From Pseudomonadota bacterium (GTDB taxonomy: Bacteria; Myxococcota_A; Bradymonadia; UBA4248), in the NCBI GenBank assembly GCA_017555665.1, contig JAFZFY010000190.1, positions 1 through 35,399 on the forward strand: a stretch of 35,399 bases of DNA, in the 5' to 3' direction. This document shows positions 13,788 through 35,149 of the stretch, piece by piece. Within the stretch, counting starts at the first letter, position 1, and every line of letters begins with the position of its first letter. The notes under the pieces were generated by a model. It saw only the letters and a program-made list of their open reading frames with translations, was not told the DNA's origin and searched no databases. The translations under genes and the position numbers were made by a program.

Positions 13788-13979
13788 ATGTCAGAGTGTG
13801 ATTACGATGAGCTTTCGGTGTGGCAGGACGTTCTAGATGAAGTCATGAATGGTCATGTAGACGGCTTGGTCTGTCCATTTTGCGAGAAGAAAGCGATAGA
13901 AGTGGATACAGAAGGGGCCTCGATCAGCATCAAGTGTACGGAATGCGGCCGGTGGATAGAGGGTCAGAACGCGTTCTGA
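13788..13979 (+). CDS. Small Zn-ribbon protein (63 aa), first gene of the baseplate module
   Basis: CPFC...17 aa...CTEC pattern, AAGGAG Shine-Dalgarno 7 nt upstream, and 19 nt before the gp25-like gene. Confidence 0.6.
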   Translation: MSECDYDELSVWQDVLDEVMNGHVDGLVCPFCEKKAIEVDTEGASISIKCTECGRWIEGQNAF

Positions 13980-13998: not shown

Positions 13999-14403
13999 AT
14001 GATAAACAGTAAGATCATAGGAAGCGGATTTTCGTTTCCAATGCAGATTGATGCTCTTGGCGGAACGGAGCTGAGTTCGGACAACGACAACATTCGCCAG
14101 AACATGATGCTGATATTGGGCACGGCTCCGGGAGAGCGTATGTGTCGTCCGACATTCGGATGCGCGATACACGATATATTGTTTGAGCCGAACACGCTCG
14201 TGACGGCGGCGAAGATCGAGTACGAGGTCAAGAAATCGCTTCTGGAATTCGAGCCTCGCGTATCAGATCTTGAAGTACATGCAGCGCCTGACGACAGCGA
14301 GCTGAGCCGCATGAATGTGACGATTTCATACACGATTCGCAAGACGAACACGAAGGCGAATCTCGTTTATCCGTTTTATCTTCGCAAAGAGGGAGAAGTA
14401 TGA
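13999..14403 (+). CDS. GPW/gp25-family baseplate wedge protein (TssE/Afp9-like)
   Basis: 134 aa. SGFSFPMQIDALGG...IRQNMMLILGTAPGERMCRPTFGCAIHDILFEP...EYEVKKSLLEFEPRV matches the gp25/GPW pattern. ATGA overlap with the next gene. Confidence 0.85.
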   Translation: MINSKIIGSGFSFPMQIDALGGTELSSDNDNIRQNMMLILGTAPGERMCRPTFGCAIHDILFEPNTLVTAAKIEYEVKKSLLEFEPRVSDLEVHAAPDDSELSRMNVTISYTIRKTNTKANLVYPFYLRKEGEV

Positions 14404-17400
14404 TTCCATTACCGAAACTGGACGACCGCAAGTGGGAAGATCTCGTCCGCGAGGCTGTAGAGCTGATACCAAAATACTGCCCGGAATGGACAAACCACAA
14501 CGCGGCAGACCCTGGTATAACGCTGTTAGAACTCTTTGCATGGCTGATCGAAGTTCTCCTTTATCGTTTGAACCGTGTCGGCGATAAGAACTATCTGGCA
14601 TTTCTGAACCTGATGGGGATTGATCTTCAGCCGCCGCAGCCATCGCGTGTGCAGCTGACGTTCAGCCTTGTATCGGGCGCGCGCAACTATCAGGTGGTTC
14701 CTGCGGGCACGAGCGTGGCGACGAATTACAAGAACGACGAGCCGCCTGTCGTGTTCGAGACGCTTCGTGACCTTGTTGTGCTCCCGACATCGATCGTGCG
14801 TTGCTTTGGTCAGTTTCACGATATTTATGCGGACAATACGCCGTATATTTACGGCCGCCCCGGGCAGTCGTTTGAAGTCTTCATGGGCTGCCAGCGCATC
14901 GAGCGTTATCTTTACTTCATGGACAGCCGTCTGGAGGTGCTCAGCGAGGAAGCGCTTCTGATCATCGGCGCGGAGACGCCGAACAGCCCTGACAGCGATT
15001 TCCCGACGCTGTGTGAATGGGAATACTGGAACGGGCACCGCTGGCGCGAGCTTGAAGCGTCGACGCAGGAGCTTCCGATCGGCTGGGTGGCGTTCAAGGG
15101 CGTTGACGGCATGGAAGAGACGACAGTCAACGATGTCAAGGGTCTTTGGATCCGCGCGCGTCTCGTGAATGTTCCTCAGAATCAGGACATGACGAGCCTT
15201 GAACGTCTCAAGATGCGCATCGAGATCCTGGGCGAGGGCATCCTTCCGGACAGCGCGATCACGCAGACGCCTGCGGATGATTTTGTGCCCGCAGACCTTT
15301 CAAAGAATTTCTTCCCGTTCCACAAAGAGCCGGCCGTGGACAGCGCGTTCTATATCGGCAACGACGAGCTTTTCGGCCATGAAAATGCGCGTATCCGCAT
15401 CGATTTCGAGCTTGCGGACGGCATCGCGGTGTCAGGCATGAATCCCTCGACGGATCTCCAGGTCGTCTGGGAATATTATGACGGTCGCCAGTGGCAGAAG
15501 ATCGGCATCGTCACCCCGAAGGGTGTCGAGGATTCGCTCAAGGGCATCGAGTTTGACGATTCGACATACTGCTTCACGCGTAACGGGACGGTGAGCTTCA
15601 CGGTGCCGGAGGATATGTCGAAAGTGGAAGTGTCCGACCAGGAAGCGTATTACGTCCGCGCGCGCATCCTCAAGGGCGATTACGGCGTTCCGGGCATGTA
15701 CATGCTCGATGGCGACAAGTGGGCATGGTTTGACGAGCGTCCGCTTCGGCCGCCTCAAATGAAATCAGTCCGCCTGAAATACGAGGAAGCGAGCCAGACG
15801 CCGCAGCTGGTCCTGACATATAACGATTTCCGGTATGAGGATGTGACGGCGCCGCTTTCGGAAGACCTCTCGACGACGCAGGTGTTCGAGCCGATTCCTG
15901 ACGAGAATCCGTCGATGTATTTCGGCATGAACGGCCCGTTCCCGAATGAGCGCGTCCAGGTGTATGTCCACGTCCTGACAAAGACGAGCGCGACGCTTGA
16001 GCGCAGCCGCGAGGACGCGAAATTCCTGCGCAACTACTATCGCAAGATGGAAGAAGAGTATTTCGGGAACAAGAAACTTGCCTGGGAATACTGGAACGGC
16101 CGCGAGTGGGCAGACCTGAATGTGACGGACGGCACGCGTGCGTTTACGGAATGCGGATATCTTGAGTTCATGGGACCGAAAGATATGGACGTGACGCGCA
16201 AGTTTGGCGAGAACCTTTACTGGATCAGGGTACGCCTTGAGATGGGCGGTTATGAGGAGCTTCCGCGTATCGACCACATCCTGTTCAACACGGTGGAAGC
16301 TGTGAACCGTCGCACGATCAATTACGAGATCATCGGCACCGGCCGTGGCACGCCGAACCAGGTGTTCAAGTTCCTGAACGCGCCAGTGCTTGAGGATGAG
16401 GAGATCTGGGTGCGTGAGAAGGAACGTCCTCGTGACGAGGAGATCACGGCGCTTCAGCAGCAGTATGGCACGAAGCCGTTCATGTATGAGGACACGCGTC
16501 TTGGCGGCTGGTGGGTGCGCTGGGAGAACGTGGACAGCTTCTTCCTGTCGAATGAGCGCAGCCGTCATTACCGCCTTGACCGCCTTTCCGGGCGTATTCA
16601 GTTCGGTAACGGCACGCGGGGGATGATGGTGCCTCTGATGGATCAGAACATCCGCACGAGCCACTATTGCATCGGCGGCGGCGTGAGGGGCAATATCGGT
16701 GTGAACCAGGCGACAACGATCCGTCAGGCGATTGCGTATATCGACGGCGTGACGAACCACTATCCCGCCGCAGGCGGCAGCGATGTGGAGTCGATCGAGG
16801 CCGTGAAACAGCGCGGGCCGTATGTCATCAAGAGCCGTTATCGTGCTGTGACCCAGGAAGACTTCGAGGTGCTCTCGCTTCAGAGCTCGAACGCGATCGC
16901 GCGTACATGCTGCCTGCCTGCAACGGAGCAGGAAGGCGCGGTGTGCATCATCGTCGTGCCGAAGTTCGACCAGGAAAAAGAAGAATATGACAAGAAGCTT
17001 GTGCCGACAGCAGAGCTGCTTCGCCGCGTGAAGGCCTATCTCGACGAGCGCCGCCTTGTGACGGTGCGCGTGAACGTGGAACGCCCGCAGTACACGGAGA
17101 TCAGCGTGTATATGGAGATCATCCGTACCTCGACCGGCGCAAGCGATCGTCTCAAACGCGATATCAACCGCGCGCTGAGGCGTTTCCTGCATCCGATCGT
17201 GGGCGGCCGCGACGGGCATGGCTGGAAGTTTGGACGCAGCGTTCTCAAGGTCGATCTCTATCACATTGTAGAGGAAGTGGACGGTGTCGAGTTCGTCGAT
17301 AAGCTTCAGATCCTCGATGAGGATCGCGGGATTTTTGTCGATCAGATCAAGCTCAGTCCCAAGGGGCTTCCGTTCCTTGTGAACGTGGATATCACGGAAA

Positions 17401-17423
17401 AGACGCGCGAGCGCGTCCTGTAA
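14400..17423 (+). CDS. Baseplate J / gp6-like baseplate assembly protein (1007 aa)
   Basis: The N-terminus LPKLDDRKWEDLVREAVELIPKYCPEWTNHNAADPGITLLELFAWLIEVLLYRLNRV resembles, from memory, the putative baseplate assembly protein family of tail-like clusters. The C-terminal part AVTQEDFEVLSLQ...CIIVVPK...RVKAYLDERRLVTVRVNV is gpJ-like. Translationally coupled to gp25. Confidence 0.85.
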   Translation: MIPLPKLDDRKWEDLVREAVELIPKYCPEWTNHNAADPGITLLELFAWLIEVLLYRLNRVGDKNYLAFLNLMGIDLQPPQPSRVQLTFSLVSGARNYQVVPAGTSVATNYKNDEPPVVFETLRDLVVLPTSIVRCFGQFHDIYADNTPYIYGRPGQSFEVFMGCQRIERYLYFMDSRLEVLSEEALLIIGAETPNSPDSDFPTLCEWEYWNGHRWRELEASTQELPIGWVAFKGVDGMEETTVNDVKGLWIRARLVNVPQNQDMTSLERLKMRIEILGEGILPDSAITQTPADDFVPADLSKNFFPFHKEPAVDSAFYIGNDELFGHENARIRIDFELADGIAVSGMNPSTDLQVVWEYYDGRQWQKIGIVTPKGVEDSLKGIEFDDSTYCFTRNGTVSFTVPEDMSKVEVSDQEAYYVRARILKGDYGVPGMYMLDGDKWAWFDERPLRPPQMKSVRLKYEEASQTPQLVLTYNDFRYEDVTAPLSEDLSTTQVFEPIPDENPSMYFGMNGPFPNERVQVYVHVLTKTSATLERSREDAKFLRNYYRKMEEEYFGNKKLAWEYWNGREWADLNVTDGTRAFTECGYLEFMGPKDMDVTRKFGENLYWIRVRLEMGGYEELPRIDHILFNTVEAVNRRTINYEIIGTGRGTPNQVFKFLNAPVLEDEEIWVREKERPRDEEITALQQQYGTKPFMYEDTRLGGWWVRWENVDSFFLSNERSRHYRLDRLSGRIQFGNGTRGMMVPLMDQNIRTSHYCIGGGVRGNIGVNQATTIRQAIAYIDGVTNHYPAAGGSDVESIEAVKQRGPYVIKSRYRAVTQEDFEVLSLQSSNAIARTCCLPATEQEGAVCIIVVPKFDQEKEEYDKKLVPTAELLRRVKAYLDERRLVTVRVNVERPQYTEISVYMEIIRTSTGASDRLKRDINRALRRFLHPIVGGRDGHGWKFGRSVLKVDLYHIVEEVDGVEFVDKLQILDEDRGIFVDQIKLSPKGLPFLVNVDITEKTRERVL

Positions 17424-17441
17424 TCGGCCTAAGGAGAAGCC

Positions 17442-18335
17442 ATGCGGGTACAGACCAAAAGAAAACTGAGTGTTCCCGATCTCGAAGGGCTGACGGCGGA
17501 GAACGCATCCGTATTTCTCGAGCTCAACGGATTTCCGAAACCGGATATTCTTTACGAGGAAAGTGATGCGCCGGCAATGACGGTACTGAATCAGGATCCC
17601 CAGAAAGGTCAGATCGTGGATGCGGATACGATCGTGACGATCTATGTGTCACAGAGTTCGTTCTGCGACCTTCTTCCGGGAATCTATCGTACGTCGATTT
17701 ATGAGGGGCATACGCATCTTCGCGATTATCTCTGGATATTCCGTCACATGTTCGACAGCGTGTCGATGGAAGTGGACAATATCCCGAAGATGTTCGATCC
17801 CTATGAGACGCCGGCTAAATTTTTGCCGTGGCTTGCCGGCTGGATCGGGTTTGTCCTCGATGAGGACTGGCCGGAAGGCAAGAAGCGCTATCTGCTTCGC
17901 CGTGCGCTCGAATACTATCGGATCCGCGGTACTGTTAAAGGGCTGAAGCTGTTCTTGTCGATATTCGTGGGCGTTGAGCCTGAGATTATCGAGAATGCAT
18001 GGCCGTTTAACGGATTTCAGATCGGCGTGCACTCGACGATGGATTTTGACACGATCATTTTCCCGGTCGTGAATCTATCTCACTGCTTTATCGTGGACAT
18101 ACCTCTGGAACCGGAGGAGGTGTCCGAGTACACGATCGTGAAGATTCACGATATCATACGCGCAGAAAAGCCGGCACACACGATGTATTATCTTCGCTTC
18201 AAGGGCAAGAAAGTGGCACTCTCGGAGTTCCAGCTGCTCGTCGGCGACGAAGAGCAGGGCTATGTCATCGGTTCTGGCGAAGAGATCGTGGAACTCGGCG
18301 AAACGGAAGTCGAGCGGCTGCCGGGTGAGGAATAA
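17442..18335 (+). CDS. PASTA-domain fusion to a P2 gpI-like phage tail (baseplate) protein
   Basis: Residues ~10-68 (VPDLEGLTAENASVFLELNGF...VLNQDPQKGQIVDADTIVTIYVS) fit PASTA. The remainder (LPGIYR...YLWIFRHMFDSV...FDPYETPAKFLPWLAGWIGFVLDEDWPEGKKRYLLRRALEYYRIRGTVKGLKLFL) fits the tail-protein-I domain. AAGGAG Shine-Dalgarno. Confidence 0.8.
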   Translation: MRVQTKRKLSVPDLEGLTAENASVFLELNGFPKPDILYEESDAPAMTVLNQDPQKGQIVDADTIVTIYVSQSSFCDLLPGIYRTSIYEGHTHLRDYLWIFRHMFDSVSMEVDNIPKMFDPYETPAKFLPWLAGWIGFVLDEDWPEGKKRYLLRRALEYYRIRGTVKGLKLFLSIFVGVEPEIIENAWPFNGFQIGVHSTMDFDTIIFPVVNLSHCFIVDIPLEPEEVSEYTIVKIHDIIRAEKPAHTMYYLRFKGKKVALSEFQLLVGDEEQGYVIGSGEEIVELGETEVERLPGEE

Positions 18336-18409: not shown

Positions 18410-19957
18410 ATGGCAGAAGACCAGGGATTCAAGCGAATCAATTTTTTCAAGGGATTTGTGACGACGACGAAAGACTGGAATGATGCAGAGCAGTATCACG
18501 TCGAAAAGCACAAGCTCCATAACCGCTGTTTTCACGGTGCCGGTGTCGTGCCGGGTTACCGTCAGGAAATGAAGATCAGTGCACGCGGCCGCGCGGATAT
18601 GTCCGTTGAGGTGTCACCGGGCTATGCGATCGACGGTCAGGGCAATGATATCATGCTTTATGAGACCGAGATCAAGGCGGTCAATAAGGGCGATTTCAAG
18701 CTTCCGTTGACGATCTACTTTGTCGTGAGGTACGTGGAAGAGTTCACGGATTTCATCTCCTATAAAGAGAATCTCGATTTCAAAGGCCATCGCCGTATAT
18801 TGGAGAAAGCGGTCATTGAGATTTCGATTACGGAACCGGATATTTCCCGTGAAGTCGAGATTGGCCGTGTGTATCTGACCGATGATGCCAAGAAGATCAC
18901 GGATGCAAAAGATCCGCTCGAACCGGGTCCGAACGAGATCGACCTTCGCTTTGTGCCTCGCGCGGGTGTGGTCGGCGGTTATCTGCCGATGGAACTCATC
19001 AACCGCCTGCGCAAGATCATCCGCACGCAGCGCGATATGTATTATCGCATGGCTCGCGACAAGAAGGTTTTGGCAGCCAACGGCGCGGCGCTTGGTCTGA
19101 TGACGATCGATATGTTGCTCGAATCGGGCACTGTCGGACCGCAGAACGTCATGCCGCTCCTCGGCAATATCGGCGATCTCGAATGGGATACGATCACCGA
19201 GATCGAAGCGACGAAGCCGACCATGAAGGCTATGAAAGACTTCGGGCAGTTCAAGCACTCTGTCGAGGTGTTCCGTGATCTCGTCGATGACAAGGCGTTG
19301 CTCGTCGATGAAAATGAACTCATCAACTTCAACAGCCTCGATCAGGTGATTGCGATCAAGGAAAAAGGCTCTGGCGCGCTGGCATCGATCGTCGGCGAAG
19401 AACTCGCGCCTGCCATCCTCGAAAATGGCGAGGAAGTCATTTCTCAGGAATGGAACAAGCTGAAAGAAATGAGCGGCGAGCTCCCCGAAACTGTCATGAT
19501 CGATGGTCAGGAATGGACGCTCATCGACTCGATTGATATCCTCAACAAGGAAAGCGAGCAGGAACATATGTTCCAGATCATCGAGGCTCGCGACTCTTGG
19601 CGTGCACGTCAGCGCATCCGTTATCCGGATGGCGTGACTGTCGAAGATGTCGGTATTGCGCATGAAGGCGGCTATACGACATTCGAGATTCACAATGTCA
19701 CGATCAGCCGTCCGATCATGATCCTTCGCCGTATGGACTATGCTCGCGGCGATTTCGAGATCGAATACAGTGCAAACGAAGTGCGCATCGGTGTTTCCCA
19801 GTGCGTCGGCTCCGACAAGCGCTTCCGCTGGCGTAACTGGCCGTTCCTTGTGCCGGCTGAATTCGTCACCTCGGAAGTCGTCAAGATCACGCAGAAAGCA
19901 CTCACTGCTGCGCGTGATATCAATATGTACCACTTCTGGTTCTATCAGGCACTTTAA
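18410..19957 (+). CDS. Hypothetical 515-aa protein; candidate peripheral baseplate, TssK-like or receptor-binding component
   Basis: GGTGGAG Shine-Dalgarno and normal amino-acid composition, whereas the 439-aa antisense ORF has shadow-ORF composition. It sits immediately after W-J-I. I recognise no family with confidence. Confidence 0.7.
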   Translation: MAEDQGFKRINFFKGFVTTTKDWNDAEQYHVEKHKLHNRCFHGAGVVPGYRQEMKISARGRADMSVEVSPGYAIDGQGNDIMLYETEIKAVNKGDFKLPLTIYFVVRYVEEFTDFISYKENLDFKGHRRILEKAVIEISITEPDISREVEIGRVYLTDDAKKITDAKDPLEPGPNEIDLRFVPRAGVVGGYLPMELINRLRKIIRTQRDMYYRMARDKKVLAANGAALGLMTIDMLLESGTVGPQNVMPLLGNIGDLEWDTITEIEATKPTMKAMKDFGQFKHSVEVFRDLVDDKALLVDENELINFNSLDQVIAIKEKGSGALASIVGEELAPAILENGEEVISQEWNKLKEMSGELPETVMIDGQEWTLIDSIDILNKESEQEHMFQIIEARDSWRARQRIRYPDGVTVEDVGIAHEGGYTTFEIHNVTISRPIMILRRMDYARGDFEIEYSANEVRIGVSQCVGSDKRFRWRNWPFLVPAEFVTSEVVKITQKALTAARDINMYHFWFYQAL

Positions 19958-20066: not shown

Positions 20067-20081
20067 ATATTGGAGAAAATT

Positions 20082-20354
20082 ATGGACGATAAAGAACGTT
20101 ACGAAATATTTAAAAAATTCCAGGGACGCTGTCATTACTGCGGTACACGCCTGAAATGGGAAGCCTTCGAAGTACGTGGGCTTTCCGGTGGCTGGGTCAT
20201 CGAAGATCAGGACGATGGCTCTAAACAGGCATTATGCTATAAGTGTTTGGAATTCCCGCAGCGTGGAAAAACAGCGCATCGCCTGACGATCAATGAAGAA
20301 CAGCGCCCGACAGGTGCTGGCTTGGGCGAAACCCCGGTCTCAAACGAACAATAA
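20082..20354 (+). CDS. Small Zn-ribbon protein (90 aa)
   Basis: CHYCG...38 aa...CYKC. TGGAGA Shine-Dalgarno upstream of ATG 20082; the track start at 20070 is TTG. It looks like an HNH finger but lacks the catalytic His. Confidence 0.55.
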   Translation: MDDKERYEIFKKFQGRCHYCGTRLKWEAFEVRGLSGGWVIEDQDDGSKQALCYKCLEFPQRGKTAHRLTINEEQRPTGAGLGETPVSNEQ

Positions 20355-20364
20355 GGAGGATTTC

Positions 20365-20829
20365 ATGGGAGCAAGCAAAACCCAGGTAATGAATTTGCTT
20401 GAGCTGCGCTATGATTATCAGTCTGCACGCAATGTTCTGGTGAATTGGCGCAAGGCGGCAGGCATTAAAGAAGATGTGGATTCGCTTGACGATGTTCAGC
20501 TTCGTTGTCTGCTCGCTTATCTCAAGGATAATGCGGCTGAGGCCAAACGTGTCCATGATGCGATTGAACGCCTGATTCTTACGGATAACGGCGATGCACC
20601 GGCTGTTGAAGCGGCTCCGGCAATCGAAGCGGTTGCGGTCGAAGAAGCCCCCGCAATCGAAGCGGTTGCGGTCGAAGAAGCCCCCGTAATCGAAGCGGTT
20701 GCGGTCGAAGAAGCCCCCGCAATCGAAGCGGTTGCGACTGAAGAAGCTCCGGCTGATGCGGCTGAAGAAGCTCCGGCTGATGCGGCTCCGGCTGAAGGTG
20801 GCAAAAAGAAAAAGAATAAGAAACGTTAA
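20365..20829 (+). CDS. Hypothetical protein: helical N-domain, acidic EEAPAIEAVAV tandem repeats, C-terminal GGKKKKNKKR
   Basis: AAGGAGGA Shine-Dalgarno 5 nt upstream of ATG 20365. 33-bp in-frame tandem repeats. Followed by a clean terminator. Confidence 0.7.
   Translation: MGASKTQVMNLLELRYDYQSARNVLVNWRKAAGIKEDVDSLDDVQLRCLLAYLKDNAAEAKRVHDAIERLILTDNGDAPAVEAAPAIEAVAVEEAPAIEAVAVEEAPVIEAVAVEEAPAIEAVATEEAPADAAEEAPADAAPAEGGKKKKNKKR
20620..20745 (+). repeat. Intragenic 33-bp tandem repeat (about 3.8 copies)
   Basis: The unit gcaatcgaagcggttgcggtcgaagaagccccc repeats at 20620, 20653, 20686 and, partially, 20719. A 24-nt gaagaagctccggctgatgcggct duplication follows. Confidence 0.85.
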
Positions 20830-21183: not shown

Positions 21184-21205
21184 TTAAAACATCAAAGATT
21201 TGATA

Positions 21206-22063
21206 TTACGGGTTGAGATCGATGGTCGAGCCCTTGAGTGTCATCTTACCAGAAGCCGTGATATCAGTGGTTGCATCGCTCTTGGAGGTGAGCTTGTTGC
21301 ATTTTATGTCGAGTGTCTTTCCAGCCTTGAAGGAGACATTCTCCTCGGCTTCGAGTTCAAAGTTTTTGCACTCCATACGGATTTTTTCTTTAGCCTTGAT
21401 AAGGATATCACCGGTATCTGTCTGGAGCGTAATTTTCTTGTTGGCGGTATCGATTTCGAGCCACTGCTGCTGATCTTTATCATAGAGGCGGATGCGCTCG
21501 CTGCCGTCTTTATCATCGATAAAGAGTTCTGCAGATTTGGCGGAGCGGACGGAGACACCACCTTCCCCGTCTTTATCGACGAAAGCGAGTGTATGTCCCA
21601 TACGGGAACGGAAGAAGCGGAAATTGTTTTCGCCGCCCTGCTGATTATTGGGGACATCAACCTCAGTCTGATCAGGCGAATAGGTAAGTTTTCTCGGAGA
21701 GTTATTGACGCCGTTCCAGAGGGAACCGACGATGATGGGTCTTCCGAAATCACCTTCCTCAAAGACGACCATGACTTCGTCATCGATTTCGGGGAGCCAA
21801 ACGCCACCCATATCGCTACCGGTCATCAGGGAGGTGATACGAGCCCAATGGCTTTGAACTTTGGATTCAGAGCCATCGGAGGTAGTTTCTTTTGAGTACT
21901 GGTCAGACAGCCACGGGAAGGAGACGCGAACGCGATAGCGATCTTCAGGATCGACATTATCCACGACTTTCGCGATCATGCCGCCCTGCATACGGGCTTC
22001 GCCCGAACGTCCCTGGTGACTCTCATTTAACATTTCGCTAATGACTTTTCCTATCGATGCCAT
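21206..22063 (-). CDS. gpV/gp5-type baseplate spike (VgrG C-terminal-half-like: OB-fold plus beta-helix), 285 aa
   Basis: GMIAKVVDNVDPEDRYRVRVSFPWL...SHWARITSLMTGSDMGGVWLPEIDDEVMVVFEEGDFGRPIIVGSLWNG is the gp5/VgrG OB-fold signature. The C-terminal alternating beta-strand repeats (ITLQTDTGDILIKAKEKIRMECKNFELEAEENVSFKAGKTLDIKCNKLT) are beta-helix-like. There is no gp27-like N-terminal half. Confidence 0.85.
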   Translation of the reverse strand: MASIGKVISEMLNESHQGRSGEARMQGGMIAKVVDNVDPEDRYRVRVSFPWLSDQYSKETTSDGSESKVQSHWARITSLMTGSDMGGVWLPEIDDEVMVVFEEGDFGRPIIVGSLWNGVNNSPRKLTYSPDQTEVDVPNNQQGGENNFRFFRSRMGHTLAFVDKDGEGGVSVRSAKSAELFIDDKDGSERIRLYDKDQQQWLEIDTANKKITLQTDTGDILIKAKEKIRMECKNFELEAEENVSFKAGKTLDIKCNKLTSKSDATTDITASGKMTLKGSTIDLNP

Positions 22064-22230: not shown

Positions 22231-23229
22231 TCAGTCAAAGTTCAGGTGAATACCCATTGCGAACCCATCCTGCATGGGGCTCAGATACGCACTCACATTG
22301 TCGACTTCGACGCGTTTTTTATCGCCGACATAGCTGAGGATAGCCAAGGTCGCACCAGTCGCGGCCGTCGCTAAGCCAACGCCGACGAATGTTCCCATCA
22401 AGGCATTACCCAGTTTCACCTTGCCATTTGCATCTGACTGCTTTTTCTCAAGCGCATCTTTTTCGGCGCTCTCTTTTCCGAGCTTTGCGATCTCGATCGA
22501 GTAGTTGATTTCATCGACCTTTGCGCTGTGTGCCATTGCCAGGAAGCCAAAGCCGCCTGCGACAAGTGCAAGACCGCCGCCGATCAGTCCCCAGTAAAGG
22601 TGAGGATTAAATTTTTCTTCCATGATATAGGTGTGTTCTTCCTTGACGACTTTTTCGACTTCGACCTGTTCGGCTTCAAAAGCGATATGGAGGCGCTGTT
22701 CTTTGCTTCCATTTACGGCCTTATGCTTGACTTCTTTTGTTTTTCCCTTGGCGTCCACAAGCTTGATGATGTGATCGCCAGGAGACATGGAATATGCGCG
22801 TTCCCAGCAAGCTGCCACACGCTCGCCATCGATCAACACATAACCGCCTGCTGGGATTTCGCAGTCAAGGTAGATCTTCTGCCACTCGCTGCAGGATGCG
22901 ATCTCATCATACGCCTTTACTGCGCGCTGATAGATCTGATTCTTTTCGGGGAGATTATACGCAACCATCACCTCGGTATAGTAATGTTGCGCCTCGGTAC
23001 ATTGATTCAACCTTTGATATGCCCTGCCTAAGGAGTAATCCACCTCAGGCCCTGCAAACTGCACGCGAAGTTCCAGATACTGCCTCAAAGCCTCACCGAG
23101 ATCGACTTTTGTCATTGCGGCCGCATCCGCCATGCGTGTCTTAAACTCTTCCATATCCTGGGCCTGGACAGTCGAGGAAAAGGCACAGAACGCGAGAACC
23201 GAATACATCAGCGGCTTAATTAATCTCAT
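22231..23229 (-). CDS. Secreted or membrane protein with a TPR-like N-region, a PEGA-like beta domain and C-terminal TM segments
   Basis: Signal peptide MRLIKPLMYSVLAFCAFSSTVQA; IPAGGYVLIDGERV...SPGDHIIKLV resembles PEGA; two hydrophobic stretches near the C-terminus; GGAGGA Shine-Dalgarno. Confidence 0.5.
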   Translation of the reverse strand: MRLIKPLMYSVLAFCAFSSTVQAQDMEEFKTRMADAAAMTKVDLGEALRQYLELRVQFAGPEVDYSLGRAYQRLNQCTEAQHYYTEVMVAYNLPEKNQIYQRAVKAYDEIASCSEWQKIYLDCEIPAGGYVLIDGERVAACWERAYSMSPGDHIIKLVDAKGKTKEVKHKAVNGSKEQRLHIAFEAEQVEVEKVVKEEHTYIMEEKFNPHLYWGLIGGGLALVAGGFGFLAMAHSAKVDEINYSIEIAKLGKESAEKDALEKKQSDANGKVKLGNALMGTFVGVGLATAATGATLAILSYVGDKKRVEVDNVSAYLSPMQDGFAMGIHLNFD

Positions 23230-23483
23230 TTATGATTCCTCCATAGTTCGCACAGCGCGCACTAAACACGGGTCTAGCATCTCACATATTCGCTTTTCTT
23301 GCAAAAAACTTATCTCATTTTCACACCATTTTTATGACGACTCGGTCTGCAGGCGTTTTCTGATATCATTTGGGAATCGTTTTGCGGGCAACCGGTGGGG
23401 GACTGAGGTGATTTGAGGCATATCGCATAGGCGTGAGGGGCGTTAAATCACTCTAGATTGAGTGGTCAAGGCCTCAAAAAATA

Positions 23484-23590
23484 GGCTTTTCCAGACCTCT
23501 CTCGGCGCGTTCGCGCCGTCCTCCCCACCGTGGGGAGGGCTTGGGTTCGCTCCCGCTCACCCATGTTTGGCGTACCCAAGGACAGTATCT
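23484..23590 (+). repeat. About 95-nt intergenic repeat, copy E2
   Basis: Homologous to 20958-21051. Its hairpin GTCCTCCCCA-ccg-TGGGGAGGGC (23518-23540) differs from E1 by paired, stem-preserving substitutions. Confidence 0.7.
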
Positions 23591-23601
23591 AGAGCATAGC
23601 C

Positions 23602-23638
23602 AAAAAAAAGACCGCATCTACCAGGTGTAGATGCGGTC
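23602..23638 (-). terminator. Rho-independent terminator of the Cys-rich lipoprotein gene
   Basis: The minus strand reads AAGACCGCAUCUAC-accugg-GUAGAUGCGGUCUU followed by U8. Confidence 0.85.
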
Positions 23639-23673
23639 TTAGGGATTATCGCGTGATAAGACGCGTATCTGGA

Positions 23674-25566
23674 TTATTTGCAAACGCCGTTGTTGCAGCT
23701 TGACTCACAGAACTCGTAGTCGCCCATGAAGTAGCCATAGCCACCAGCTTCCGTCTTGTCGCAGGTATATTGAACGGAGAGCGGATAGCCCATATAGGTC
23801 ATGCATACTTTTTCAGCAGGATCGCCCGCGTTGCATGCGATCGCGCAGTCGGAATAATTATCTGCGGCACGGACGGCACACGGCGCGTCGCTGTCGCATT
23901 CGATCGTGGCAACGGCGCCCTCGCTGCAATAATAACCCGTGTTGCCATCGCACACTTCGACAAAGTTGTCATCGCATTTGTCGCCGACTGTCGGACCTGT
24001 GCCGCCCGAAACGCACGCGCCGTTCGAGCATTTCTCGTCACATGTCTGTGAATCTACCCAAGCACCGTTCTTACAGGTCTGGACAGTCTTGCCAGAGCAT
24101 TTTTTCGCACCCTCCGTGCAGGTCGCGGGGCTCTGGCCGTCGCAAACGCCATTGTCGCAGCTCGATTCGCAGAACGTATAATCGCCCATGAAGTAGCCAT
24201 AGCCGCCAGCTTCCGTCTTGTCGCAGGTATATTGAACGGCGAGCGGATAGCCCATGTAAGTCATGCATACGCTTTCAGCAGGATCACCCGCGTTGCACGC
24301 GACAGCACAGTCGGAGTAGTTGTCGGAGGCACGGACGGCACACGGCGCGTCATTATCGCAATCGATCGTATCAACAGTGCCTTCGCTGCAATAGTAACCC
24401 GTGTTGCCATCACAGAGCTCGACGAAGTTGTCATCGCACTTGTCGCCAACGCTCGGAATGGTGACGGGATCGCTTGAGCAAGCACCGCTCTTGCAGCTGA
24501 TATCACATGACTGACTGGTGACCCATTCGCCGTTCGTGCAGGTCTGGACATCCTTGCCGGAGCAGCGTTTTGTGCCGTCCGTGCAAGCCGTAGGCGTCTG
24601 GCCATCGCAAACACCGTTGCTGCAGCTCGATTTGCACACTTCATATTCGCCCATGAAATAGGCATAGCTGCCATCTTCCGTCTTGTCGCAGGTATATTTG
24701 ACGGAAAGCGGATTGCCCATATAGTCTACGCATACGTTCTCGGCAGGATCACCCGCGTTGCACTCAGAGGCGCAGTCGGAATAATTGTCGGAAGCACGGA
24801 CGGCACACGGCGCATCGCTGTCGCATTCGAACGTCTCGACCTTGCTCTCATGACAATAGTAGCCGGTATTGCCGTCGCAGACTTCGGTGAAGTTGTCGTC
24901 ACAGCTGTCACCCACGTTAGGAATGCTACCCGCTTCAACGCATTTACCGCTACGGCAGGTGTCGGCACCAGGCTGGTTGCACACGGAAATCGTCTTCCAT
25001 ACGCCATCCTGACATTCCTGAACGGCTTCGCCTGCTGCACAACGCGTCGCACCTTCTTTGCAGGCCGCTTCTGCTACGCATGAACCGGCTTTGCACGTCT
25101 GACCGCTCGGGCAGGGCGAATCAACCCATGTATTGTTGGAACAAACCTGATGTGCACCCAGCGATGTGCAGCGCTGCGCACCCGCATTACATACGGTTTC
25201 GGGGGTAACCGAATCTGGATCACAGTAGGCACCATTCGGACCGGATGTGCACGCCAGCGCGCCGCAATCTGTCAGCTCATACGTCCATTTCGATTCGCTG
25301 CAGTATTTGACCGAATTGCCTGCACATACCGGCTTCGTCGTCGCAGGATTGCATTCCTGAATCGACAGACATTCGCCGCTGTTGCACGTTCTGCCTGTAG
25401 GACACGGAATCGAAACATACTCGCCATCGACACATTCCTGGCGTACACCGCTCGCATTACAAATGCGATGACCTTCCTCGCACGCCGCCTTGTTGCCATC
25501 TTCTTCATTACACGACGCACAGCTCAGTGCCGCCAGCATCGCAATAACAGTCCATGTCTTTTTCAT
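23674..25566 (-). CDS. Cysteine-rich repeat lipoprotein (about 630 aa)
   Basis: MKKTWTVIAMLAALSCASC signal/lipobox-like N-terminus with GGAGA Shine-Dalgarno upstream of ATG 25566. N-terminal C-x-G-x-x-C modules are followed by three ~154-aa repeats (GDxCDDNFxExCDGNTGYYC...DNYSDCA..CNAGDPAE.VC...YTCDKTE.G.Y.YFMG.Y..C.SSC.NGVC). Confidence 0.8.
   Translation of the reverse strand: MKKTWTVIAMLAALSCASCNEEDGNKAACEEGHRICNASGVRQECVDGEYVSIPCPTGRTCNSGECLSIQECNPATTKPVCAGNSVKYCSESKWTYELTDCGALACTSGPNGAYCDPDSVTPETVCNAGAQRCTSLGAHQVCSNNTWVDSPCPSGQTCKAGSCVAEAACKEGATRCAAGEAVQECQDGVWKTISVCNQPGADTCRSGKCVEAGSIPNVGDSCDDNFTEVCDGNTGYYCHESKVETFECDSDAPCAVRASDNYSDCASECNAGDPAENVCVDYMGNPLSVKYTCDKTEDGSYAYFMGEYEVCKSSCSNGVCDGQTPTACTDGTKRCSGKDVQTCTNGEWVTSQSCDISCKSGACSSDPVTIPSVGDKCDDNFVELCDGNTGYYCSEGTVDTIDCDNDAPCAVRASDNYSDCAVACNAGDPAESVCMTYMGYPLAVQYTCDKTEAGGYGYFMGDYTFCESSCDNGVCDGQSPATCTEGAKKCSGKTVQTCKNGAWVDSQTCDEKCSNGACVSGGTGPTVGDKCDDNFVEVCDGNTGYYCSEGAVATIECDSDAPCAVRAADNYSDCAIACNAGDPAEKVCMTYMGYPLSVQYTCDKTEAGGYGYFMGDYEFCESSCNNGVCK
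23683..25070 (-). repeat. Three tandem ~462-465-bp intragenic repeats
   Basis: The landmark ggtatat(t)tgaacgg/gacgg...agcggat(a/t)gcccat recurs at 23764, 24226 and 24691. The antisense track ORFs at 23770 and 24232 are near-identical. Confidence 0.8.
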
Positions 25567-26173
25567 CTCTTTCTCCATTGTCGCCACTTGGGCACGAATT
25601 ATTAAATTGTTTAAGGCACGCGATGGTTCTCTTTGCTTAGAGCAAAGTGCCGTTCCCCCCTTTATGCCGTAATCTGCGCCTACTTTCAACTACATATCAC
25701 CATATTTTGCAAAAAAAATATCACTTTCAGGCATTTTTTTGAATTTTGGACATCTCACCCGCTGTTTTTCGCGTACCCAGATGGATAAAATTCAGTCTAA
25801 GACGGAATAGACTGCATAATCAGAGCAATCATCCCCATTGGGATTCAGTCGCGTGCTCGATATCTGGGGATGCTGCGCGCCTCGCGCCTGTGCGCGGCAT
25901 GATCTCACATCATCCAGACCCGTGCATGGTTCGCGATAAGGCATGCTTGCATCATCTTAGCGCTGGCTGTGCTGCGATTTGGATCACGAGATCTGGATTT
26001 GAAGCACGCACGCCCGGCGTGATATACACGCCGCCTGCGCCCGCCGCCTGCGCCCGAATCAAGCGGCACGGCTGTTACGGCTTGCATCCGATGGCGCGTC
26101 CCACACGCCTGGATCATGCATCCGCGTCTAGGGCATCACGCTGCAAAAACTCTTGCAAATACAGGATTTTACA

Positions 26174-33206: not shown

Positions 33207-35009
33207 TCAATCGGCGTGAATGAGACTGGCAGATACGCCGCCAGACGCGAGTTCCGGATTGGAGATCTGCGGCAGGACCTGTTCGATAAAGAGCTCGACG
33301 ATATTGATATCGAGTGCGCCTTCTGCCGCCTCTTTGCGAAGGATCATGGCTGCTTCCCCGAAAGAATGGCGCAACTTGTAGGAGCGGTCGCCGCCCGTGA
33401 GCGCGTCAAAGATATCGCAGACGGTGATGATGCGGCTTTGAAGGCAGATCTGATCGCCTGAAATGCCATAGGGATAGCCAGTGCCGTTCAACTTTTCGTG
33501 ATGCTGGAGCACATAGAGGGGGACGTTTGCCCATCGCGGCGGCCAGGCGATCTGCGTGAGGTATTGCCACGAGATCAGCGCATGCTTTTGGATTTCGCGT
33601 CTTTCGTCCGTGTTCAGCGTGCCCTTTGTGATGAGCAAAGACTCGCGTTCCTGCGGCGAGAGCAACGGGATATTCGGGCACGGCGCGATATAGGTGCGCG
33701 CCATTTCATCGATGATCTCGATATCTTCGGGCGCGGCTTTTTCTTGCGCGAGCTGCACGCGCGTGACGACTTCGCGGTAATGCTCGAATCTGCGTTGCGG
33801 GCGGTAATCGTCACCGAGCTTTTCGGGAGATTGCGTCTGAAACCAAGCGGCAAAGAGGTCAAGCCGTTCGAGAAGGTGGTTGAGATCAGACTTGGTCAGC
33901 TTGGCATCCTTGAGCAAGATTTCACGCCGAAGGACGACTTTGCCGATATCGTGAAGCAGCGCGGCAAAGCGCAGTTCATCGAGATGATTGTTCGAAAAGG
34001 AGATATTTTTAAATGCCGGGTGTTGCGAGGCATGCACGGCTTGCGCGGTGAACAGGGCATATTTGGCGACGCGCATGGAGTGGCCCGATGATGCGGGATC
34101 ACGCGCATCCATGACCGTGATCAGGGAGCGGATAAACCCGTCGAACACGGCACTGAGGTCGGCATTGACAAAGGTTCTTTCGATGGCATACGCGCTGACA
34201 CACGCGACGCGCGTGCATCGCTCCAGGTCGGCATGCGTAAAAGGCTGATCTTCGGAGGCATCTGCCGTGATCACGCCGAGTTCCCGCCGTGATGTGACGA
34301 TCGGTGCCACGATCATTGAGAGCGAGCCTTGCCCGCGCACAGCCTGGTGTAATTCCGAGACCCTGCTGCGGATCACACGCCTGAAATCATCCGGTGAGAA
34401 AATGTTTGGCGTGATGCGCTCGGCGCGTGCACGCTCGTAACTCCGGATAAATGCATCCTGGCAGGAGTCGTATTTCCAGAAAGAAAGATGAGAAAGATAG
34501 GGGATCTGAAGCATGAGCATCTGCGCGAGATGCGTCATGACGGCTTCATAAGTCGTCTTTGACGTGAGTGCCGTGGAGATGTCGAGCAAAAACGCGAGCA
34601 GCTTCGGATCGTCTGAAGGGGAAAGCGTATGTAGCGGCAGCGTCTCTGTATGCTGGATACGCATGCCGCAACTATCAGGCGGGGCATTCGGGATATTGGT
34701 GCACTGTATCACGCTTTGGCCCAGCGACAGCGTGCATTCCCCCGTGAGCGCCACCGACTGGGGCAGCTGATGGCTGAACAGCAAGACATCGATACTCGCA
34801 GAGCGCACGCGTGTCCCGCGCGCGCTGAGCATGTCACAATACGCATAACTCGCCTCGTGCGCGTTCGTGAACTGACCGTGATACTCGCTGACTTCTGGGT
34901 CAGTGAGCTGAAAGTCATTCCCCGGATCTGTGCCGATATGGACGACGCTTTGCTGGAAACGCCCACATTTCCCTGCATCTCTTCCATAAATGACTTGAAG
35001 CTGAATCAT
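33207..35009 (-). CDS. FHA-domain / sensor (GAF-like) / HD-GYP-domain protein (putative c-di-GMP phosphodiesterase)
   Basis: N-terminal FHA pattern (VVHIGTDPGNDFQLTDPEVSEYHGQF), HD motif (HSMRVAKY...LLHDIGK) and HHEKLNGTGYPYG (GYP). The start is ATG 35009 or GTG 35033. Confidence 0.8.
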   Translation of the reverse strand: MIQLQVIYGRDAGKCGRFQQSVVHIGTDPGNDFQLTDPEVSEYHGQFTNAHEASYAYCDMLSARGTRVRSASIDVLLFSHQLPQSVALTGECTLSLGQSVIQCTNIPNAPPDSCGMRIQHTETLPLHTLSPSDDPKLLAFLLDISTALTSKTTYEAVMTHLAQMLMLQIPYLSHLSFWKYDSCQDAFIRSYERARAERITPNIFSPDDFRRVIRSRVSELHQAVRGQGSLSMIVAPIVTSRRELGVITADASEDQPFTHADLERCTRVACVSAYAIERTFVNADLSAVFDGFIRSLITVMDARDPASSGHSMRVAKYALFTAQAVHASQHPAFKNISFSNNHLDELRFAALLHDIGKVVLRREILLKDAKLTKSDLNHLLERLDLFAAWFQTQSPEKLGDDYRPQRRFEHYREVVTRVQLAQEKAAPEDIEIIDEMARTYIAPCPNIPLLSPQERESLLITKGTLNTDERREIQKHALISWQYLTQIAWPPRWANVPLYVLQHHEKLNGTGYPYGISGDQICLQSRIITVCDIFDALTGGDRSYKLRHSFGEAAMILRKEAAEGALDINIVELFIEQVLPQISNPELASGGVSASLIHAD

Positions 35010-35149
35010 GCCTGCTGCCCTTGCATACACCACATTTCGGGCAGAACGCCCAAAACATCACGATGTCCTCCCGTGTAGGTATTAATACCACACGTGCGCT
35101 TTTTATGCCCAATTTTTTTACTGAAATTTAGTTGTCGCTGAACCTAAAG

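Follow-up and report, generated by a model that had tools for sequence, protein, structure and literature searches.

Why a domain best known from wall-sensing kinases should be fused to a subunit of a contractile baseplate is the question raised by a single gene in a 35,399 bp stretch of Myxococcota DNA, which was analysed as a whole and is referred to here as the window. [quoted passage not shown] The features involved are collected in Table 1, and the gene product is called PASTA-gpI below.

Table 1. Features of the wedge module and of the adjacent spike gene, with positions counted from the first nucleotide of the window.
Feature	Position	Strand	Size or residues	Basis or remarks
Zinc-ribbon protein (CPFC...CTEC)	13788..13979	+	63 aa	ORF; weak Zn-ribbon Pfam matches
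gp25/gpW/TssE/Cis9-type sheath-initiator wedge protein	13999..14403	+	134 aa	PF04965 GPW_gp25, E = 2.6e-23
gpJ/TssF/Cis11-type wedge protein	14400..17423	+	1007 aa	PF04865 Baseplate_J, E = 1.5e-18; TIGR02243
Shine-Dalgarno sequence AAGGAG	17431..17436	+		5 nt before the PASTA-gpI ATG; direct reading of the sequence
PASTA-gpI (Cis12/Tri2/TssG-type) wedge protein	17442..18335	+	297 aa	Pfam, PDB profile, AlphaFold2/Foldseek
PASTA domain	17463..17657	+	residues 8-72	Pfam, PDB profile search, model and Foldseek, column conservation
Linker	17658..17726	+	residues 73-95	Conserved L78-P79-G-I-Y82, P79 invariant; pLDDT 62-79
gpI/Tri2/Cis12/TssG-type core	17727..18206	+	residues 96-255	PF09684, TIGR02242, 9gtp_E/8kea_c/6u5b_0
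Acidic C-terminal tail	18207..18332	+	residues 256-297	pLDDT <50
TssK-like/Cis13-like protein	18410..19957	+	515 aa	Foldseek of model; CIS13_fam
Small CxxC...CxxC protein	20070..20354	+	about 90 aa	After the 515-aa gene in 15 loci
Small protein with EEAPAIEAVAV repeats and Lys-rich tail	20293..20829	+	154-178 aa	Present in 14 loci
VgrG/gpV-type spike protein	21206..22063	-	285 aa	PF04717 Phage_base_V, E = 4.7e-21; VgrG-related NCBIfam matches

The open reading frame quoted in the initial annotation is this same product, and its start codon is the correct one: AAGGAG stands just ahead of it, the ATG at 17442 is the first start available to the frame, and homologues begin at the same place. These three observations rule out a downstream start codon; the upstream gpJ-like gene stops at 17423, the next in-frame methionine is M46, and a start there would split the PASTA domain. 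A low-complexity or chance match to PASTA was ruled out by the curated cut-offs, the PDB profile matches, and the fold superposition given below. The chance that the fusion is an artefact, be it a wrong start, a chimera made in assembly, or a PASTA-like match by accident, is negligible: a ribosome binding site stands ahead of the frame's first possible start codon, independent contigs obtained from different samples encode the very same protein, each of the 80 best loci in species-representative genomes has the fusion, the scores are above curated cut-offs with a fold match of 1.1–1.5 Å, and the PASTA domain is under purifying selection. GC content gave no sign of the wedge module being foreign to the surrounding DNA, and a hydropathy scan of PASTA-gpI and its wedge partners revealed neither a signal peptide nor a transmembrane segment.

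In Pfam-A, the PASTA family (PF03793) was matched at residues 11–71 (E = 1.9e-8; 34.6 bits vs. a gathering score of 23.2), and residues 1–80 searched alone scored 38.1 bits against the same cut-off. A profile built from 32 homologues matched the PASTA domain of Mycobacterium tuberculosis PknB in the PDB (2kui, E = 8.5e-16). The AlphaFold2 model, with a pLDDT of about 90 over residues 11–70, predicted the small alpha/beta fold of a strand, a helix, and a three-stranded sheet, and Foldseek superposed it on PknB PASTA domains with an rmsd of 1.1–1.5 Å over 66–68 residues (TM of 0.91 for 3ouv, target-normalised) at 27–29% identity. A PASTA domain at the N-terminus of a gpI-type protein, as initially annotated, is thus borne out by Pfam, PDB profile, and model superposition. 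Its closest matches in both structure and sequence are the sensor PASTAs of PknB, PrkC, and StkP, not those of PBP2x. The canonical fold positions P12, G16, A22, L26, G30, Q51, P53, G56, and V69 are conserved, and F31 together with Y38-x-E40-S41-Y42 forms a motif that is specific to the PASTA-gpI family and lies outside these positions. The extracytoplasmic context C-terminal to a kinase or transpeptidase, which is typical of PASTA domains but does not define them, is not that of PASTA-gpI. Muropeptide binding is not shared by all PASTA domains, exceptions being that of PonA2 and several others, some of them in PBPs, and we know of no sequence signature that predicts ligand binding by a PASTA domain.

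The remaining ~230 residues, initially assigned to tail protein I, scored above the cut-offs of PF09684 Tail_P2_I (residues 108–245, E = 3.9e-13; 49.9 bits vs. 20.6, Pfam-A) and of the NCBIfam families TIGR02242 (79 bits vs. 51.85) and TIGR01634 (30.2 bits vs. 30.05), and were modelled with the fold of small wedge subunits, which upholds that assignment. The 32-homologue profile matched Streptomyces coelicolor Cis12 in the PDB (9gtp_E, E = 8.1e-13), and Foldseek E-values of the model were 5.4e-9 for 9gtp, 2.3e-7 for 8kea_c, 6e-6 for 8v3w, and 3.6e-3 for 6u5b_0. The non-PASTA part thereby matches Cis12 (9gtp), the cyanophage A-1(L) wedge protein gp32, the diffocin triplex, and pyocin Tri2, with a global rmsd that is high because the model also holds the PASTA domain and disordered loops. 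Structurally, this core is predicted to consist of a long N-terminal stem helix (residues 92–112) and an alpha/beta domain. The NCBIfam model of the Afp12/Pvc12-type Cis12 proteins (NF053768 CIS12_fam) gave 80.2 bits vs. a cut-off of 860, over positions 463–572 of its 715, and by this comparison PASTA-gpI shares its core with the large Afp12-type protein but is not an equivalog of it. Within the core, the low-confidence segment 190–212 may correspond, by analogy, to TssG loop 1 (PMC6300606). Similarly, the tail at residues 256–297 may be the loop on which the downstream TssK-like protein docks, an analogy drawn from TssG loop 2 and TssK (PMC6300606) and from the Alg12 C-terminal loop and Alg19 (PMC13314943).

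The genetic context agrees with a wedge function, PASTA-gpI being encoded directly after gp25-like and gpJ-like genes. The zinc-ribbon gene is the first of the wedge module, directly 5′ of gp25, and a relative, often in duplicate, precedes gp25 in 74 of 85 loci. The gp25-type gene was found in 77 of these loci (its product matching TssE below threshold in NCBIfam), and the gpJ-type gene, whose start overlaps the gp25 stop and whose product scored 344.8 bits vs. a cut-off of 155.8 with TIGR02243, in all 85. The gene for the 515-aa protein comes after that for PASTA-gpI in 79 of 85. This protein has 695 homologues of near-constant length, all named hypothetical, with a mean column identity of 59%, and had no match in Pfam; its model (pLDDT of 82) gave as top Foldseek matches TssK (5y0e), the TssK-TssF-TssG complex (6n38), and the Anabaena CIS baseplate (7b5h), followed by carbohydrate-binding modules, and its N-terminus matched the NCBIfam family CIS13_fam (E = 7.8e-12). 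In a gut-associated clade, the module includes the CxxC...CxxC gene and ends with a gene of the EEAPAIEAVAV-repeat type, in which a tandem repeat occupies positions 20620–20747 of the window. The spike gene is convergent with the wedge module and located downstream of it.

The window thus holds spike and wedge genes (Phage_base_V, gp25, gpJ, and gpI), and no sheath or tube gene was found in its 35 kb, nor within 10 kb in the gut-clade relatives L009 and L013. Relatives in other Myxococcota carry a sheath (PF04984 and PF17482 in locus L036), a gp19 tube, CIS_tube proteins, a spike, and an AAA ATPase. The sheath and tube genes of the present genome must therefore be located elsewhere or be absent. 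Pfam searches of the window and of the examined loci (about 10 kb per side) yielded no match to TssB/TssC, Hcp, TssJ/L/M, or TssA, and several conserved operon proteins in these loci are without annotation. Two to three FHA-domain proteins are encoded in the operon of most lineages, with Ser/Thr kinases nearby, and the tube-initiator protein of the same gene-cluster family carries a LysM domain. A SurA/PpiD-like periplasmic chaperone is encoded in the window, and the relatives are nearly all titled as Myxococcota or under a former name of that group, so the producer looks diderm, with its sacculus beyond the inner membrane. Myxococcota eCIS-like clusters have been found to be strongly expressed in the sea, were read as extracellular systems, and were proposed to be predation weapons (PMC11937823). 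Taken together, the product of the gene is almost certainly the small wedge subunit of a contractile injection system that is chromosomally encoded in uncultured Myxococcota.

The fusion is not peculiar to this genome. Among the 150 best cluster representatives at 50% identity, 57 are PASTA-gpI proteins, so that at least 57 clusters have the fusion, and among the matches listed both Pfam domains were recognised in 109 of 120 homologues, two of the others scoring close to the threshold, at or under it. In each of the 80 best genome loci the match begins at residue 21 or earlier, and almost all of these loci bear a Myxococcota title or a former name of that group. Homologues with as little as about 40% identity still align with the N-terminal domain without a shift in register. 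Mean pairwise identity is 46% for the PASTA domain vs. 60% for the core, and dN/dS is about 0.12 vs. 0.05, ratios that are rough because dS is near saturation. These comparisons indicate that the PASTA domain is under purifying selection and that, in an injection-system family spread across the Myxococcota, this subunit normally carries the fusion. As to the naming of divergent clusters, Myxococcales stands in those of the PASTA-gpI fusion, and giant multi-PASTA repeats go with one Planctomycetota protein. A tblastn search of 50,697 phage genomes with PASTA-gpI returned nothing at E <= 1e-3, and six IMG/VR loci match the core only, from residue 68 onwards, with the PASTA part never covered; a prophage or phage origin of the fusion was ruled out on these grounds.

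In full-text literature searches, no PASTA domain tied to a contractile injection system was found, and a search for PASTA domains with baseplate or tail gave nothing relevant by title, among the best matches for tail. In a catalogue of the receptor-binding domains of eCIS published in 2026, PASTA occurs only as weak matches at the C-termini of some fibres and never on Tail_P2_I proteins (PMC12923769), and the fusion is absent both from this catalogue of fibres and from a CIS metagenome survey. The initial claim that no PASTA-bearing baseplate wedge protein had been described therefore stands for the literature searched, although some copies have already been auto-named 'PASTA domain-containing protein' by NCBI.

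Surveying the architectures of related Cis12-like proteins revealed that other modules occupy the position of the PASTA domain. Protein P0131 has two PASTAs at its N-terminus, P0247 carries an NHL beta-propeller there, and further relatives have N-terminal domains of 170–200 aa; for those of P0220, P0237, and P0262, Pfam and PDB sequence searches matched the Cis12 cores alone. Such swapping suggests the behaviour of an exposed, exchangeable binding module, and the bulk of the alternative modules indirectly suggests that the PASTA domain is exposed on the baseplate. Its placement at the baseplate periphery, as initially proposed, is nevertheless called into question by the T6SS, where the corresponding stem at the N-terminus is directed at TssE and the sheath (PMC6300606).

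How the subunit might work can be outlined by homology. One copy of PASTA-gpI would join two gpJ/TssF-like copies through the stem helix, a stoichiometry inferred from 9GTP, pyocin R2, and TssF2-TssG, so that each baseplate would carry six PASTA domains; gp25/TssE would tie the wedge to the sheath, and the segments 190–212 and 256–297 would dock trimers of the downstream 515-aa protein. Our preferred reading, held tentatively and at somewhat less than an even chance, is that the PASTA domain is a solvent-exposed, ligand-binding accessory that contacts peptidoglycan or muropeptide-like material of a target, a binding that we regard as plausible. Such binding would take place once the particle is outside the producer, or has come before a neighbouring cell in some other way, and would be a second contact of low specificity, in addition to the carbohydrate-binding-module-like heads of the TssK-like protein; it would help to keep the baseplate in place or in the right orientation on the wall, and might add to the firing signal. 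The moderate conservation of the domain is more in keeping with a ligand that does not vary than with a receptor caught in an arms race, and the kinase-sensor character of its best matches, the exchange of N-terminal modules among relatives, the TssK-like product of the next gene, the complete systems (sheath, tubes, spike, and AAA ATPase) of relatives, and the proposed predatory role of Myxococcota eCIS-like clusters (PMC11937823) all point the same way. In AlgoCIS, moreover, a TssK-like fibre docks on the Alg12 C-terminal loop, and a second receptor contact has been postulated since fibre binding alone does not fire the particle (PMC13314943). Against target binding stand the PASTA domains that fail to bind muropeptides, the peptidoglycan of Gram-negative prey lying beneath an outer membrane, and the lack of a sheath or tube gene in the window; contact with a target wall is also not guaranteed since the domain precedes the stem helix, and in the T6SS this stem is turned toward TssE and the sheath, not the distal face (PMC6300606). 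The further step, in which the six PASTA domains form a peptidoglycan or muropeptide sensor that gates the firing of a Myxococcota-wide injection system, we consider rather unlikely. Such a sensor might act on an exposed prey wall, or cytoplasmically on lipid II or precursors as a reading of wall damage, and the FHA proteins of the operon might link it to phospho-signalling.

A serious rival to target binding, if a doubtful one in our estimate, is that the PASTA fold has been co-opted without any peptidoglycan ligand, as a protein–protein module that builds or stabilises the baseplate and that might connect the wedge with gp25 and the first ring of the sheath, with its neighbouring wedges, or with the TssK-like trimer. 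Precedent exists in the LysM fold of Cis7, T4 gp53, and P2 gpX, and with a LysM on the tube initiator of the same clusters and on Alg7 of AlgoCIS (PMC13314943), wall-binding folds evidently recur in baseplates. The invariant LPGIY-type linker motif suggests a docked rather than a floppy linker, the F31/Y38-x-E40-S41-Y42 patch could be a protein interface, and both the near-constant company of the 515-aa protein (79 of 85 loci) and the stem directed at TssE and the sheath in the T6SS (PMC6300606) would fit. A tightly packed adaptor, however, would poorly tolerate the NHL propellers, 170–200 aa domains, and PASTA duplications of relatives, and S. coelicolor Cis12, pyocin Tri2, and phage gpI make wedges without any such domain.

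Quite unlikely in our view is a machine that stays inside its producer, as in T6SS-like or Streptomyces-like systems, with the PASTA domain as a cytoplasmic sensor or anchor. Its putative ligand would be UDP-MurNAc-pentapeptide, lipid I, lipid II, or a signalling partner, and baseplate placement or firing would be coupled to the state of the cell wall. The FHA proteins and nearby Ser/Thr kinases, reminiscent of T6SS threonine-phosphorylation control, fit this arrangement better than target binding, as does the TssK-like protein, whose unusual conservation is that expected of a partner in the same cell. The wedge is also of the TssE-TssF-TssG-TssK type, PASTA-gpI has no export signal, and its closest solved core relative is the Cis12 of the cytoplasmic S. 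coelicolor system, which fires after envelope stress (nisin) and depends on a membrane adaptor to do so. To our knowledge, however, a cytoplasmic PASTA domain that binds wall precursors has no precedent, and the examined loci, many genes of which are without annotation, contain no recognisable CisA-like gene or membrane complex of the T6SS type. The carbohydrate-binding-module-like head of the TssK-like protein and the reading of comparable Myxococcota clusters as extracellular (PMC11937823) argue in the same direction. Least of all can a T6SS-like attachment of the baseplate to the sacculus of the producer itself, one of the two functions initially proposed, be upheld: only the general association of PASTA with peptidoglycan speaks for it, and we judge it very improbable because PASTA-gpI and its wedge partners, devoid of signal peptides and transmembrane segments, would be made in the cytoplasm of an apparent diderm with a periplasmic sacculus. 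The T6SS makes its own contact with peptidoglycan via periplasmic domains of membrane-complex proteins, not via the baseplate. T6SS baseplates are cytoplasmic (PMC6300606).

How contractile injection systems recognise a target and decide to fire is an open question, and a 2026 study of AlgoCIS concluded that the fibre by itself does not suffice and that the second receptor contact is missing (PMC13314943); a kinase-type wall-sensor domain in a wedge subunit is a concrete, if putative, candidate for such a contact. The fusion also extends the range of PASTA domains beyond the extracytoplasmic parts of Gram-positive kinases and PBPs to a cytoplasmically made machine of a diderm phylum, and it points to the N-terminus of Cis12-type proteins as a place where modules are exchanged (PASTA, double PASTA, and NHL propeller), which could serve the retargeting of engineered injection systems. 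If the domain were purely structural, it would be a modest addition to baseplate diversity; if it did gate firing, this would be the first phage-tail-like machine triggered by cell-wall chemistry via a Ser/Thr-kinase-type domain, in a group rich in predators.

Compared with known systems, PASTA-gpI shares its sequence family (PF03793) and fold with the PASTA domains of PknB/PrkC/StkP and PBP2x-type proteins. Whereas classical PASTA domains lie at the C-terminus, usually as repeats, in extracytoplasmic parts of proteins from Gram-positive bacteria, the present one is single, N-terminal, devoid of an export signal, and part of a phage-tail-like machine in a diderm lineage. The LysM domain of Cis7/Pvc7/Alg7, T4 gp53, and P2 gpX is likewise a peptidoglycan-binding fold built into a contractile baseplate, but it differs in fold and subunit and sits in the inner hub rather than the wedge. 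Its role in baseplate tube-initiator proteins is regarded as structural, and it therefore serves as a caution rather than as a model for PASTA.

The core at residues 96–255 resembles S. coelicolor Cis12 (9GTP), pyocin R2 Tri2 (PA0619, 6U5B), the diffocin triplex, and P2 gpI in both profile and fold; in this group the gene likewise follows gp25 and gpJ, and two large and one small wedge subunit are expected. These proteins are about 150–190 aa long and start some 10–35 residues before the stem helix without any N-terminal domain, in contrast to the 65-residue PASTA domain and conserved linker of PASTA-gpI, and the S. coelicolor system lacks the fibre or TssK-like protein that is present here. 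The T6SS wedge TssE-TssF-TssG-TssK (6N38) is of the same order and kinds, with gp25-, gpJ-, and gpI-like subunits followed by a TssK shoulder-and-neck fold, and TssG, for which we know of no report of a PASTA domain, is likewise gpI-like with two flexible loops. Different from the T6SS are the phage-type sheath, gp19 tube, and Cis15-kind AAA ATPase of PASTA-gpI relatives, and the head of the 515-aa protein, which resembles carbohydrate-binding modules and not the TssK head. The resolved TssG model begins at residue 122, and in the TssF2-TssG trimer it is toward TssE and the sheath that the N-terminal stem extends (PMC6300606). Finally, in the eBAP3 eCIS (PMC12923769) and in AlgoCIS (Alg12-Alg19, PMC13314943), a Tail_P2_I gene is followed by one with a TssK-like shoulder, as is the case for PASTA-gpI, and docking via loops of the small wedge subunit was proposed or shown for these systems (PMC12923769, PMC13314943). 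The eBAP3 systems are mainly from Bacillota and Actinobacteriota and bear variable fibres (PMC12923769), whereas the partner of PASTA-gpI is short, near-constant in length, and strongly conserved, and the extra binding-type domain, unlike those of that catalogue, is located on the Tail_P2_I subunit itself.

The open reading frame of PASTA-gpI encodes exactly the 297-aa protein quoted in the initial annotation, which had proposed a PASTA domain fused N-terminally to a gpI-type baseplate protein. Position 17442 is the earliest possible start in this frame, with the upstream gene ending at 17423 and an AAGGAG motif located at 17431–17436, 5 nt 5′ of the ATG, which argues against a true start further downstream. 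Pfam-A revealed a PASTA domain (PF03793, residues 11–71; 34.6 bits vs. a gathering score of 23.2) followed by a Tail_P2_I domain (PF09684, residues 108–245; 49.9 bits vs. 20.6). Moreover, a profile of 32 homologues, searched against the PDB, matched the PASTA repeats of Mycobacterium tuberculosis PknB (2kui; E = 8.5e-16) and, independently, the Cis12 protein of the Streptomyces coelicolor injection system (9gtp_E; E = 8.1e-13), with further matches to cyanophage wedge protein gp32 and pyocin Tri2. In an AlphaFold2 model based on the same alignment (pLDDT ~90 across residues 11–70), Foldseek superposed the N-terminal part on the PASTA domains of PknB, PrkC, and StkP (1.1–1.5 Å rmsd over 66–68 residues) and matched the rest to Cis12, gp32, the diffocin triplex, and Tri2. 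In NCBIfam, tail_TIGR02242 exceeded its cut-off and the PASTA region of Stk1-type kinases was matched locally; the protein is no equivalog of the large Afp12-type Cis12 (80 bits vs. a cut-off of 860).

The proposed fusion is therefore borne out by Pfam, PDB profile, modeled fold, and NCBIfam alike, with a clear PASTA match within the first 80 residues. By sequence and fold, the N-terminal domain is a PASTA member that departs from the usual PASTA context and most resembles those of Ser/Thr kinases, while profile, fold, and synteny place the core in the gpI/Tri2/TssG family. The protein carries one PASTA domain (presumably six per baseplate) and lacks an export signal.

Among the 129 homologues returned from the protein database, both Pfam domains were present in 109 of the 120 listed, and two of the remaining ones, tested directly, yielded PASTA matches at or just under threshold. 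In the homologue alignment, the N-terminal domain stayed in register to ~40% identity, keeping the canonical PASTA fold positions (P12, G16, A22, L26, G30, Q51, P53, G56, and V69) and a family-specific patch (F31/Y38-x-E40-S41-Y42). Across 15 close relatives, dN/dS was ~0.12 for the PASTA codons and 0.05 for the core (rough figures, with synonymous sites near saturation). The PASTA domain is thus conserved and under purifying selection.

When 1.84 billion representatives at 50% identity were searched exhaustively with the profile and the hits were sorted by sub-profiles for the two parts, PASTA-gpI accounted for 57 of the best 150, most others being gpI proteins without PASTA or multi-PASTA giants unrelated to the baseplate protein apart from the shared domain. 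The latter (P0143–P0148 and ~50 more rows) span 2000–3400 aa with 20–31 tandem PASTA repeats, and one is annotated to a Planctomycetota MAG. A scan of species-representative genomes yielded 551 stretches encoding relatives, the best 80 of which all matched from residue 21 or earlier and nearly all were titled Myxococcota or older names (Myxococcales, Deltaproteobacteria, Proteobacteria), including Kofleriaceae, Haliangiales, Nannocystineae, Polyangia, and Bradymonadia. Two loci (L015 and L042) titled "Bacteroidaceae bacterium" and "uncultured Enterobacteriaceae bacterium" have a typically Myxococcota gene order and are probably mis-binned contigs. The closest relatives of the window stem from roe deer and goat omasum metagenomes (88–97% identity), followed by a dairy-cattle colon MAG (82%). 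No match was found in a set of 50,697 phage genomes, and in six IMG/VR loci encoding relatives the core was matched but never the PASTA part. We know of no cultured organism carrying the system.

The window is housekeeping in character (dnaA, CarD, rpsD, hisS, a PpiD/SurA-like chaperone, and mutL), with a compact wedge module beginning directly after mutL and no sheath or tube gene within its 35 kb. The replication origin may be nearby, given that dnaA precedes the module by ~11 kb. An open reading frame on the plus strand (21200–21895), overlapping the minus-strand spike gene, was dismissed as spurious.

Features of the wedge module and its surroundings in the window
Feature	Position	Strand	Remark
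dnaA	1686–3131	−	
Zinc-ribbon protein, 63 aa	13788–13979	+	CPFC...CTEC; upstream of gp25
gp25/TssE	13999–14403	+	
gpJ/TssF-type protein, 1007 aa	14400–17423	+	
PASTA-gpI, 297 aa	17442–18335	+	
515-aa protein (TssK-like)	18410–19957	+	no Pfam match
Small CxxC...CxxC protein	20070–20354	+	follows TssK-like gene in gut clade
Small Ala/Glu-rich protein	20293–20829	+	Lys-rich C-terminus; EEAPAIEAVAV repeats
33-bp tandem repeat	20620–20747		encodes EEAPAIEAVAV repeats; 3.9 copies, 94% matches
VgrG-like spike	21206–22063	−	convergent to wedge module
332-aa signal-peptide protein, then 671-aa protein	22231–25689	−	after spike; informative family match for neither
964-aa lipoprotein	28111–31005	−	NlpC/P60 peptidoglycan endopeptidase domain; 8 kb downstream of module
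FHA-GAF-HD protein	33207–35033	−	

Across 85 retrieved loci (80 of them from scanning genomes, five from contig look-ups, with up to 10 kb of flank per side), the order gp25, gpJ, PASTA-gpI, and 515-aa protein was near-invariant (77, 85, 85, and 79 loci, respectively). The zinc-ribbon protein, kept upstream of gp25 in 74 of them and often duplicated, sits roughly where other systems encode PAAR. Outside the gut clade (i.e., the window's nearest relatives, from ruminant gut metagenomes), the wedge genes are embedded in a full cluster, preceded by sheath, gp19 tube, CIS_tube/LysM initiator, Phage_GPD spike, and zinc-ribbon protein(s), and followed by two to three proteins with an FHA domain, a pair of conserved unknowns, and an AAA ATPase. 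These FHA proteins are encoded within the operon, downstream of the TssK-like gene, in ~50 loci (among L004, L005, and L025–L085), with PEGA-domain Ser/Thr kinases nearby, an arrangement reminiscent of T6SS threonine-phosphorylation control. In the gut clade, by contrast, a seven-gene module (zinc-ribbon, gp25, gpJ, PASTA-gpI, TssK-like, and two small proteins) stands isolated and lacks the operon FHA genes, with no sheath, tube, or FHA gene within 10–17 kb. Its neighbors vary by genome, from mutL in the window to an Amidase_3-PEGA protein and a Ser/Thr kinase (L013) or a DUF4139 and a PSP1-domain protein (L009). The gut clade has either dispersed the system or lost part of it.

For the 515-aa protein, 695 homologues were found; their length hardly varies, mean column identity is 59%, and every one is annotated as hypothetical. 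Its conservation exceeds that of the wedge subunit on which it presumably docks, an unusual trait in a receptor-binding protein. At the N-terminus, it is matched by NCBIfam CIS13_fam. In its model (pLDDT 82), a helical neck separates the N-terminal and C-terminal beta-sandwiches, and the best Foldseek matches are TssK (5y0e), TssK-TssF-TssG (6n38), and All3314 of the Anabaena CIS baseplate (7b5h), the C-terminal domain resembling CBM6/35/36 carbohydrate-binding modules. The protein is thus predicted to fold like the TssK shoulder and neck, topped by a carbohydrate-binding-module-like head. In the T6SS, each of two TssG loops binds a TssK trimer (PMC6300606), and in AlgoCIS the TssK-like shoulder of the fibre is bound by the Alg12 C-terminal loop (PMC13314943). 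The low-confidence segments of the PASTA-gpI model (residues 190–212 and 256–297) would be natural candidates for such docking loops.

Where PASTA-gpI has its PASTA domain, related Cis12-like proteins carry other modules (a pair of PASTAs, an NHL beta-propeller, or 170–200-aa domains of unknown kind); modules are exchanged at the N-terminus of Cis12/gpI-like proteins. Such variants were seen among P0131, P0247, P0248, P0220, P0237, and P0262 (rows of the 50%-identity search). The mycobacterial kinases PknB and PknD also have PASTA and NHL propellers as their extracellular sensor domains. The N-terminal position in Cis12-like proteins thus accommodates large modules that can be swapped, an argument for exposure and a binding role. 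Because of this tolerance we tentatively favor PASTA as an accessory ligand-binding module that might touch peptidoglycan-like material of the target, its putative ligand, next to the TssK-like protein's carbohydrate-binding-module-like heads. This would fit with the second receptor contact postulated for AlgoCIS firing (PMC13314943), and with the proposal of such Myxococcota clusters as predation weapons (PMC11937823).

The main rival, a purely structural adaptor, is a serious though somewhat less likely alternative: LysM in Cis7, gp53, and gpX provides a precedent, the conserved linker motif and family-specific patch of PASTA-gpI agree, and the TssF2-TssG N-terminal stem points to TssE and the sheath (PMC6300606), but the exchange for bulky modules speaks against it. 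A machine that stays inside its producer, as in Streptomyces, with PASTA sensing wall precursors, is unlikely; the closest solved core does come from that cytoplasmic, envelope-stress-triggered system, and the FHA proteins, nearby kinases, and unusually conserved TssK-like protein agree. Anchoring of the baseplate to the producer's own sacculus, an option raised in the initial annotation, is highly improbable, as the baseplate is cytoplasmic and the sacculus periplasmic.

The fusion had also been put forward as undescribed, and indeed no paper linking PASTA to contractile injection systems, baseplates, or phage tails was found in the searched literature, although automated annotation already names some copies "PASTA domain-containing protein". 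In the supplement of the eCIS fibre catalogue (PMC12923769), PASTA appears as weak matches only, at the C-termini of a few fibres. The PASTA-gpI architecture is genuine and uncharacterized, with conservation throughout the phylum. Because the 515-aa protein matches TssK and CIS13_fam, the wedge is of the TssE-TssF-TssG-TssK kind, and it agrees with the type that this 2026 catalogue defines as "Tail_P2_I baseplate with TssK-like eBAP3 fibre" (PMC12923769).
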